Part shown: piece by piece, positions 54,492-56,438 of the stretch
Numbering within the stretch: the first letter of the stretch is position 1
Layout: each line of letters opens with the position of its first letter
Source: Nitrospiraceae bacterium
GTDB lineage: Bacteria > Nitrospirota > Thermodesulfovibrionia > UBA6902
Direction of reading: 5' to 3'
DNA: 64,000 nt
NCBI GenBank assembly: GCA_003599505.1
Contig: QZKO01000067.1
Coordinates: 37,114 to 101,113, forward strand
Translations under genes and position numbers: made by a program
The notes under the pieces: generated by a model
Seen by the model: only the letters and a program-made list of their open reading frames with translations
Databases searched by the model: none
What the model was told of the DNA's origin: nothing

Positions 54492-55281
54492 GCGGCAGTC
54501 TGCGCAATCATTGGGGATATACGCCTGAAGAAATCTGGGAGCCATTGGCCGCACGTGATAACGCTCCACCCGATTTGTTTAACGATCTTTATGAAGCTGC
54601 TGAGGGCTTTCTCGCCTTGCCGACAGCGGAACCTCTGTTTGAAGAAATCCAGAATGATGCCGTCAAAGCACACACCGCTTTTTGTGCCCTGAACGGTTCT
54701 GATTTTCGTGACGAAACTGCAATCGTGGAATTTCTGGAGACTGCATATGACGTTATTGTTGATTATGACGTCCCCGGAGACCCTGAAATTTTCAAACAAC
54801 TCTTGAGGCAATTTATAACCAAATATACCTTCGTTATCGCCTCGACGACCCCTTCAAGTTGCGCTTTCTGCTCCCGGGTTCGTTTTCAAACCTTTATTCC
54901 GAACTTCAGCGGCTGAATTCTACAAACGGCCATTTAAGCGGACTTCTTCAAGACTTCGAACACGCCTTCGACCGCTATGCCCGCAGTCAGGATGCAGCCG
55001 ACCTCAAAACCTGTATCGCTAAAGCAAGCAACTACGCCGAGGGCTTGGCGTCCACAACTCATGGCACCCCCGGAACGTTGGGCGCTCTTTGCAATCAAAT
55101 CGGCGATTGGCCGCATGACAAGGTAAAAGAGTCACTGCAAAGTCTTTATAAGTTTTGTTCTGATTATCCGGGCATAAGACATGCTGGCAGTCCCAGCGGT
55201 ATGAGGCGTGACTTGTCGTCAAAAGATTCAACCTTGATCTGTCTCCTTCTCCTCGGCTCCGGTGTTGGCAGGGGTTCGTGA
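54488..55281 (+). pseudogene. Abi/HEPN-like hypothetical protein, frameshifted and probably 3'-truncated
   Basis: 1-bp loss near 54827 (KY-N-LRYRLDDP); LYKFCSDYPGIRH motif; family assignment tentative. Confidence 0.55.
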
Positions 55282-55462
55282 TACACAGGAAGAAGCATTA
55301 AAGTTACTTGTCGGTGAAGAACCGCTCGAATCCTTCACCCGTCAAGAGGAAGTTGAAACCTTTACAGACGGTCGGGACTCTTTACCGGATCAGCCAGTCT
55401 CATTTGCTTCTGATCGAAGGATGTTCTCGCCAAGAAGAGTGAGGATGCTTCATGGACGTTAG
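55280..55462 (+). pseudogene. Possible Cas5e C-terminal remnant
   Basis: DQPVSFASDRRMFSPRRV resembles the Cas5e end; lies directly before the cas6e remnant. Confidence 0.45.
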
Positions 55463-55478
55463 TGCAGGTGGGATACAG

Positions 55479-55532
55479 ATCGGCCCCACCAAAGCCTTTG
55501 GCTGCGGGCTTATACTGATTAGGAGGGCATGA
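55479..55532 (+). pseudogene. Cas6e C-terminal remnant
   Basis: IGPTKAFGCGLILIRRA-stop, the Cas6e glycine-rich loop. Confidence 0.8.
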
Positions 55533-55657
55533 GGTCGTGACAATTTGTCACAGACTGTGCCGTCGTGGTCGATAAAGGGCAGGTACAAATTGTACCCCCC
55601 CTTTTTTGAAGTTCAGTCGTCGACAGAATGTCTACAACTTACGGAGGAGCATTGGTA

Positions 55658-56149
55658 ATGTCGCAAAAACTTATTCATTATACCGAACTGCTCGGCCAAA
55701 TCAAACAGCGGATCAGGCAGGGACAGACCCGCGCTGTGTTTGCTGCAAATACGGAGATGATCCTGACTTACTGGGACATTGGACGAATGATTCTTTACAG
55801 GCAGGAACGCAAAGGATGGGGTGCGTCTGTTATCCCGAGGCTTTCCCTCGATATTCGCAACGAATTTCCAGAAGTAAAAGGATTTTCTGAACGGAATATA
55901 GGGAGGATGATAGCTTTTTACCGCGCCTATCCCGCTCTCGGTCCAATTTTGCCACAGGCTGTGGCAAAATCACAGCGGCTTGCGTGCCGGGACGCATTCA
56001 GACAGGCAAGAGTGCTGAACCGCATCATTCCGACTATCGAGCAGATACTTGCGGCTGGAGGAATGGAGAGGCCGAAGGCGCATGAAGAGGCAGTCCCGAT
56101 AGCAATACCGAATAAGGAGGAGTTAGGCGATGCTGGTCATCGTGGTTGA
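55658..56149 (+). pseudogene. In-frame chimera: DUF1016/YhcG N-terminus fused to type I-E Cas1 C-terminus
   Basis: YWDIGRMI..GWGA..GFSERNI up to about 55975, then [31 protein letters not shown] overlapping the cas2 start. Confidence 0.82.
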
Positions 56150-56438
56150 AAACGCGCCTCCCCGCCTGAGGGGTAGGCTTGCAGTGTGGCTGCTTGAAGT
56201 GCGGGCCGGTGTCTATGTCGGTAATGTAAGCCGCCGCATTCGCGAAATGATCTGGGGTCAGGTCGAGAAAGGCATCGAGGACGGCAATGCGGTAATGGCG
56301 TGGAATACAAATACAGAGTCGGGATTTGATTTTATGACACTGGGAGCCAACAGGCGGATTCCGGTTGAAATGGACGGAATAAAATTGGTGTCATTTCTAC
56401 CGGAAAAAGTGGAATCTGATGATTCAAATGATGAGTGA
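56130..56438 (+). CDS. cas2: CRISPR-associated Cas2, type I-E
   Basis: [38 protein letters not shown]. Confidence 0.95.

Follow-up and report, generated by a model that had tools for sequence, protein, structure and literature searches.

A type I-E CRISPR-Cas locus of a Nitrospiraceae bacterium, very probably inactivated by two recent rearrangements in a defence hot spot

The stretch of DNA analysed here, a window of 64,000 nucleotides that forms part of a 101-kb contig, carries what is very probably a type I-E CRISPR-Cas locus recently inactivated by two events in a recombination-prone defence hot spot, and not a working device. The locus is a case of ordinary recent gene decay and contains no new device. 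It requires no functional story for a cas2 gene left on its own, and offers instead a resolved snapshot of the turnover of a defence island, in which a type I-E system has been overwritten by a type I restriction-modification (R-M) system and a PIN nuclease that are already breaking down, with breakpoints that can be read at base level from intact relatives. Its wider interest is that this comparison revealed a slot for cargo genes between cas6e and cas1 in a type I-E clade of this bacterial class. The genome is a metagenome-assembled genome (MAG) of 2.64 Mb in 87 contigs, estimated to be 95% complete, and the unassembled portion of about 5% could hide a second CRISPR-Cas system. The local anatomy was drawn from an open reading frame (ORF) listing and a six-frame reading of positions 55100-56460, and the junctions were judged by alignment to relatives.

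In E. coli K-12 the type I-E genes are arranged in the order cas3-cse1-cse2-cas7-cas5e-cas6e-cas1-cas2-array, and intact relatives of the same genus as the window carry the whole gene set. The window shares with the E. coli system a full-length Cas2e and 29-nt repeats with the I-E hairpin at a spacing of 61 nt, whereas only stubs of cas3 (33 codons), cas5e (about 68 codons) and cas1 (57 codons) are kept, and cse1, cse2, cas7 and cas6e are absent. The gene for the Cas3 helicase-nuclease is reduced to its 5′ stub, the Cascade set (cse1, cse2, cas7e, cas5e and cas6e) is lacking, and the Cas1e integrase is represented by a tail without the catalytic core; Cas2e, the leader and an array of 29-nt I-E repeats are present. 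The genome search recovered no Cas1 of any type elsewhere in the 95%-complete assembly, no profile match to Cas7e or Cas5e in the window's own genome and no match to Cas3 above the cut-off elsewhere in it, while the sole match to Cas6e in that genome was a 17-codon tail. Searches of the window by tblastn with the proteins of two relatives of the same genus, G010 and G005, detected neither cse1 nor cse2. Since the rest of the assembly yielded no Cas1, Cas3, Cas5e or Cas7e, the locus should be able neither to acquire spacers nor to interfere, that is, both activities would have been lost. The preliminary description had presented the operon as collapsed to stumps, with the 3′ tips of cas5e, cas6e and cas1 as the only survivors ahead of cas2. 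The fragments are indeed derived from cas genes and stand in operon order, and the three tips are real, but the number of events was overstated, two rearrangements being sufficient, and the cas3 stub at 47672 had been overlooked.

The DNA upstream of the left edge of the damage matches that of intact relatives. A tRNA-Ala gene (46326-46401) precedes a gene for a DEDDh (DnaQ-like) 3′-5′ exonuclease (46486-47001, + strand; Pfam RNase_T, 8e-33; PADLOC "DEDDh, CAS associated", 2.6e-39), and window positions 46483-47658 match the DEDDh and ORF6N genes that lie immediately 5′ of cas3 in G010 and G005. The following segment (47659-47772), which spans the cas3 promoter and the gene's initial 33 codons, is 82-89% identical at the DNA level to G010, G005 and five other members of the family. 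The cas3 stub itself (47672-47782, + strand), recognised by its DNA and protein matches to these relatives, consists of the 33 cas3 codons (47672-47770) followed by three foreign codons and a stop; its translation follows the N-terminus of G010 Cas3 up to "...LLPYHCLD", and the left breakpoint falls at about 47772.

Beyond this point lies a 7.5-kb replacement block (47773-55258, + strand), delimited by Pfam, PADLOC and comparison with G036, a member of another genus of the same family. Its genes are, in order, one for a 317-aa protein of unknown type, a PIN nuclease gene, hsdR, hsdM, hsdS and a PDC-S32-like gene, where PDC stands for phage defence candidate. The block is itself in decay: hsdM is split into two frames, hsdS carries a nonsense codon at 53817-53819 (CGA to TGA), and the PDC-S32-like gene has a −1 frameshift (a 1-nt deletion) at about 54826 and lacks its last 18 or so codons. 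G036, by comparison, has an intact hsdS of 387 aa and an intact 274-aa copy of the PDC-S32-like protein, at 86-87% DNA identity. Homology to G036 stops at 55258 and homology to Cas5e starts at 55243, which places the right breakpoint at 55249-55258, at a microhomology of about 7 nt (CCTCGGC-like). No compositional break was detected at the block. Given that relatives match at both of its edges, a single replacement explains the loss of the whole segment that begins at cas3 codon 34 and ends at cas5e codon ~158.

Immediately to the right of the block stands the 3′ tip of cas5e (55259-55462, + strand; about 68 codons and a TAG stop, identified by its similarity to the Cas5e of a relative, G167), within a 74-codon open frame at 55238-55459 that precedes the Cas6e tail. 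When the fragments were searched against profiles, cas2, the DUF1016 N-terminal domain, the cas6e tip and the Cas1 tail were all matched, but the cas5e tip was missed: it gave no match with Pfam, NCBIfam or the Cas5e profile used on the window's own genome, nor by tblastn with Cas5e of G010 or G005. Extending the search to 300 genomes of the class was more informative: the tip shows 89% identity (E 3.7e-38) with residues ~159-228 in a 251-aa protein of G167, and 62-70% with four others. The G167 protein is a Cas5e (TIGR01868, 7.8e-35), so that the cas5e tip, which had been put forward only tentatively, is genuine and corresponds to the C-terminus of that protein. At the DNA level, positions 55243-55533 align with G167 with a single 1-nt indel, an extra G at 55461 in the window, by which the TAG stop arises and the Cas6e tail falls out of frame.

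The Cas6e tail (55479-55532, + strand) is a 17-codon sequence, IGPTKAFGCGLILIRRA and a stop, in a different frame from the cas5e tip. It matches PF08798 at positions 208-223 of 223 (E 5.6e-4), with homology that begins abruptly at 55479, and is 82% identical to the C-terminus of G010 Cas6e. In G167 the Cas5e frame continues into a Cas6e-type tail, "...GIQVGPAKAFGCGLMLVKRI", after which come a Bro-N gene and cas1; operons of the G167 type also have a full cas6e upstream of cas7, in the order cse2-cas6e-cas7-cas5e. Two further genomes (G253 and G270) have the tail in a tiny frame of its own, in G253 together with a full cas6e at another position of the operon, and G108 carries a second copy of the tail 69 nt beyond the end of a complete cas6e. 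Because the tail is also found in otherwise intact operons, it was not created in this genome. The comparison indicates that it is an inherited, older scar at the left boundary of a module made up of cargo, cas1 and cas2. The reading of the cas6e tip as a stump of the collapse therefore has to be revised: the 17 codons are real, but they are a scar also seen in operons that are otherwise whole. Between the scar and the DUF1016 gene lies a conserved spacer (55533-55627) with the palindromes GTGACAATTTGTCAC and GGTACAAATTGTACC. This spacer aligns with the G010 DNA between cas6e and DUF1016 and is better conserved with respect to that genome than the flanking coding DNA. The second palindrome, GGTACAAATTGTACC, scores as terminator-like in the window; its T-run is not conserved in G010.

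The spacer leads into a fusion ORF of 173 aa (55628-56149, + strand), recognised by its matches to DUF1016_N and to the Cas1e tail. Its first 116 codons (55628-55975, + strand) are the N-terminal part of a DUF1016/YhcG gene, with residues 24-113 matching positions 1-90 of the 137 positions of the Pfam DUF1016_N profile (E 8.5e-24); this part is 66% identical in amino acid sequence to residues 1-114 of the G010 DUF1016 protein and 78% identical to the G024 and G204 proteins. Unlike the G010 orthologue, which has both DUF1016_N and the YhcG_C PD-(D/E)XK nuclease domain, the window retains these 116 codons only, and Pfam gave no match to YhcG_C in the fusion ORF. The remainder (55976-56149, + strand) comprises, in frame with the DUF1016 part, the last 57 codons of cas1e and its stop. 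This tail is 83% identical to Cas1 residues 243-307 of G010 and G005 (E 5e-30), aligns with residues 245-303 of E. coli Cas1 (E 3.5e-13; the equivalent region is ~248-305) and scores 4.8e-14 against the PADLOC Cas1e model, with a weak match in NCBIfam. The catalytic residues of Cas1e, E141, H208 and D221 in E. coli numbering, lie outside the retained tail.

The preliminary description was right that a DUF1016/YhcG gene is fused in frame to the end of Cas1, and its figure of 57 or so Cas1 residues agrees with the count obtained here; it was also right that a gene of this family once lay between cas6e and cas1. It had suggested looking for intact relatives with DUF1016 inside the operon, and G010, of the same genus, has a full-length gene there, as do G024 and G204. 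Alignment to G010 resolves the junction: window positions 55479-55975 correspond to the final 54 nt of cas6e, the intergenic spacer and the initial 342 nt of DUF1016, and from 55976 the window continues at cas1 codon 251. The junction at 55975/55976 is sharp, the two sides sharing no more than 1 nt, and the segment missing at the join amounts to 1600 bp in G010 coordinates, a length that brings DUF1016 and cas1, natively in different frames, into one frame. A join of this kind falls in frame by chance in one case out of three. Only 4 nt separate the junction from the end of a perfect 23-nt palindrome (55949-55971), whose G010 equivalent is likewise perfect; the palindrome may have favoured the deletion.

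The gene that follows, cas2e (56130-56438, + strand; 102 aa), is intact. It matches PF09707 (1.2e-38) and the whole of TIGR01873 (positions 1-87 of 87; 123 bits, the cut-off being 33), is 91-92% identical to Cas2 of the intact operons of G010 and G005, and shows no private substitution with respect to 120 homologs. The closest Cas2 proteins, at 94-96% identity, are located on short contigs. Among the ten other genomes of the genus Cas2e occurs in two, a patchy distribution. The fusion ORF ends inside the start region of cas2, overlapping it by 20 nt (56130 versus 56149) exactly as cas1 does in G010 (14231 versus 14250). Translational coupling to cas2 had been described as preserved, and the native overlap of cas1 stop and cas2 start is indeed kept; however, cas2 is preceded by an AAGGAGG of its own 9 nt 5′ of the ATG, so that it could be translated without any coupling to the fusion ORF.

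A history can be proposed from these comparisons. The ancestor would have carried, in its 5′ part, tRNA-Ala, the DEDDh exonuclease gene, the ORF6N gene, cas3, cse1, cse2, cas6e, cas7 and cas5e and, in its 3′ part, the Cas6e-tail scar, a DUF1016/YhcG cargo gene, cas1, cas2, the leader and the array. In a first event, as the matches at both edges show, about 7 kb from cas3 codon 34 to cas5e codon ~158 was exchanged for the block of PIN, type I R-M and PDC-S32-like genes. In a second, as the G010 alignment shows, the 1600-bp deletion took away what followed in DUF1016 together with 250 codons from the start of cas1; the palindrome next to its left edge may have promoted it, and the in-frame landing was fortuitous. 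The fusion protein would then be a functionless by-product, and cas2 and the three repeats would persist because there has been too little time for them to be struck. The stubs have accumulated no stop codons. Estimates of dN/dS (Nei-Gojobori) bear on this chronology, with values of 0.07-0.12 for cas2 against G010 and G005, 0.02 for the cas1 tail against G005, 0.10 for the cas5e tip against G167 and 0.03-0.07 for controls between intact relatives. The cas5e tip cannot function and yet has a ratio like that of cas2, from which it follows that the signature of purifying selection is older than the wreck and uninformative on present function. On this evidence the wreck is young relative to the divergence from the sampled relatives, and such youth suffices to explain the absence of private substitutions in Cas2.

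Degenerate or orphan CRISPR loci that have arisen by deletion of cas genes are well documented in Escherichia and Shigella and in many other lineages. The present locus resembles them in having lost its effector and adaptation genes, in the short array and fragments that remain and in its patchy occurrence within the genus. It differs from them in that the lost segment has been replaced by another defence block (type I R-M and PIN), and in that a second deletion has made an open, in-frame fusion with a gene that is not a cas gene.

That fusion invites another interpretation, in which the DUF1016_N domain joined to the Cas1 tail is kept for binding Cas2 and the pair has taken on a new role, whether regulatory, toxin-antitoxin-like or as a decoy. 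The in-frame join, the native 20-nt overlap and a Cas2 free of private substitutions would all accord with it. In a study of Cas1-Cas2, the C-terminal tail of Cas1 was found to be flexible in the apo complex and to become organised around, or wrap, the PAM (preprint 10.1101/602623), which provides a lead here and not evidence. Against this interpretation, no metagenome contig matches both halves of the chimeric protein, which makes it a singleton; the DUF1016 N-domain breaks off two-thirds of the way through its profile; an in-frame outcome requires no more luck than one in three; a Shine-Dalgarno sequence precedes cas2 itself; a search upstream on the + strand gave no sigma-70-like promoter; and the entire neighbourhood is decaying. 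The equally low dN/dS of the non-functional cas5e fragment also removes the support for the suggestions that the chimera might still bind Cas2 and that a solo cas2 indicates a role outside adaptation. A retained function of this general sort is consequently regarded as very unlikely. A specific version, in which the fusion, through its I-E-specific Cas1 tail, acts with Cas2 as a regulator or as a dominant-negative decoy against incoming I-E adaptation, is slightly less likely again; such a Cas2 partner, if real, would explain why just two frames stay open in a decaying island. It may be noted that the pristine cas2, the open fusion and the perfect leader and repeats are compatible with recent decay and also with retained function.

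It is also very improbable that the junctions are chimeric joins introduced by assembly and that the organism really has an intact operon. Strain mixtures can yield chimeric contigs, the MAG is in 87 pieces, and the exact 24-nt junction is absent from JGI metagenome contigs, although that search may omit the genome's own records. On the other hand, the flanks share at most 1 nt (DUF1016/cas1) and about 7 nt (block/cas5e) with the intact references, far below any assembler k-mer, which counts against chimeric assembly. No other part of the assembly repeats the DNA of this region, and the missing cas pieces were not found on other contigs. Moreover, comparable truncations are seen in assemblies made independently: the slot holds truncated pieces of DUF1016 or Bro-N in G108 and in the metagenome loci L088, L090 and L144, and Cas1 stubs occur in G016, G034 and the metagenome locus L166. 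Misassembly through the two other DUF1016 copies of the genome, acting as repeats, was considered separately and rejected, as neither has DNA similarity to the copy in the window. Recent decay through two rearrangements thus continues to be the preferred account.

What remains downstream of cas2 is a 63-nt leader and a mini CRISPR array (56439-56713, + strand), delimited by a repeat search and by alignment of the leader to G010. Three perfect 29-nt I-E repeats start at 56502, 56563 and 56624, at a spacing of 61 nt; the three spacers are 32 nt long, and a degenerate repeat at 56685-56713 closes the array. The leader and first repeats align with G010 at 81%, and the G010 array, also with 61-nt spacing, extends over at least ~2.8 kb. 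It is most improbable that this is a minimal working remnant, still transcribed, that another CRISPR-Cas system of the cell uses in trans and with cas2 serving that system. The leader and the three repeats are indeed perfect, and the spacers match nothing in their own genome outside the array, but the 95%-complete assembly yielded no Cas1, no Cas7e, Cas5e or Cas3 above the cut-off, nothing of Cas6e besides the tail and no I-E repeats elsewhere, and spacers 1 and 2 (the two searched) have no exact match in viral contigs.

The relatives that made the breakpoints legible also show how the slot between cas6e and cas1 is used. G010 has the operon cas3-cse1-cse2-cas7-cas5e-cas6e-DUF1016-cas1-cas2 with a long array, its slot gene encoding a protein of 399 aa and its cas1 one of 307 aa, and G005 has a gene for a 288-aa Bro-N protein in the same position. 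A census across the class of loci with a Cas1 85-100% identical to that of G010 placed Bro-N in this gap in 13 genomes, full-length DUF1016 in three (G010, G024 and G204), a DUF1016 fragment in one (G108), BrnT/BrnA in two and MNT/HEPN together with BrnA in one. In more distant Cas1e loci (44-46% identity), cas6e directly adjoins cas1. An additional cargo gene between these two thus sets this clade apart from the E. coli K-12 arrangement, as does the cas6e-cas7-cas5e order of the sub-lineage nearest to the window by its cas5e tip. The census shows the gap to be a cargo hot spot in this I-E clade, and the Cas6e-tail scar seems to bound the slot on the left and to travel with the adaptation module.

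No description of DUF1016, YhcG or Bro-N between cas6e and cas1 in type I-E operons was found in the literature searched. The idea that DUF1016 might be a dedicated, Cas4-like partner in adaptation was considered and is weakened by the census, since the same slot also holds unrelated cargo, toxin-antitoxin pairs and fragments. Should cargo of the slot nevertheless take part in spacer acquisition, it would merit testing. PADLOC, for its part, lists both PD-DExK (DUF1016/YhcG-like) and DEDDh as CRISPR-associated. In its models the slot gene of G010 is recovered as "PD_DExK, CAS associated" (7e-37) and as PDC-S02 (4e-142), and the Bro-N slot gene as PDC-S13 (3e-120).

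Among the type I-E loci of the clade in which Cas1 is 85-100% identical, cas6e and cas1 are separated by a cargo slot of variable content, for which no description turned up in the literature searched. It is occupied by Bro-N/PDC-S13 in 13 genomes and by DUF1016/PDC-S02 as three full-length genes plus fragments, the alternative contents being BrnT/BrnA or MNT/HEPN (further loci: L030, L032, L036, L043, L088, L090 and L144). In the two same-genus genomes with intact operons, the cargo gene lies at L020:12135-13334 (G010) and L021:3868-4734 (G005); both stops overlap cas1 and, in G005, the start also overlaps cas6e. 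The cargo fragments show that the contents of the slot have turned over repeatedly.

A 17-20-codon C-terminal tail of Cas6e ('IGPAKAFGCGLMLVRR') is conserved ahead of the cargo-cas1-cas2 module, even where the real cas6e sits elsewhere (in the order cas6e-cas7-cas5e) or is complete. This tail is found at 55479-55532 in the window and in two relatives with otherwise intact operons, G108 (L032) and G167 (L083:12159-12914), being joined in frame to Cas5e in the latter. The tail resembles a recombination joint belonging to an adaptation cassette that shuffles. The adjoining spacer (55533-55627) carries two palindromes, GTGACAATTTGTCAC and GGTACAAATTGTACC, and its conservation between the window and G010 exceeds that of the flanking genes. 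A further palindrome of 23 nt within DUF1016 (55949-55971), which stops 4 nt short of the deletion junction that fuses DUF1016 to the last Cas1 codons, is perfect in both genomes, the differences between them being paired (C:G to A:T). Since the ILQQxVAK motif is encoded by overlapping codons, the palindrome may owe its existence in part to coding.

Further decayed adaptation modules are found elsewhere. Two sister-genus genomes hold N-terminal stubs of Cas1 (residues 1-54; L053, G016:C12:97-264, and L054, G034:C86:3722-3889), and a metagenome contig (L166) encodes residues 199-281 of Cas1 and, after them, part of Cas2.

Directly upstream of cas3, G010 and G005 share a conserved stand-alone gene for a DEDDh (DnaQ-like) exonuclease, which is retained in the window (46486-47001), where it adjoins tRNA-Ala. 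Its product matches the PADLOC CAS-associated DEDDh model (2.6e-39) and may be a prespacer-trimming accessory of this Cas4-less I-E system.

The type I restriction-modification block that stands in place of the cas genes is also broken (51833-55281): hsdM is divided between two reading frames (51833-52168 and 52201-53343), hsdS is interrupted by a nonsense codon (CGA>TGA, 53817-53819), and a PDC-S32-like gene is both frameshifted (-1, at about 54826) and truncated at its end. Intact counterparts with 86-87% DNA identity are present in G036, from another genus of the family. The gene pair at the block's left end (47926-49305) differs from the neighbouring restriction-modification genes in that both its frames are open: one encodes a 317-aa protein that matches PDC-M32A weakly (6.5e-6), and its partner is an intact PIN-domain gene.
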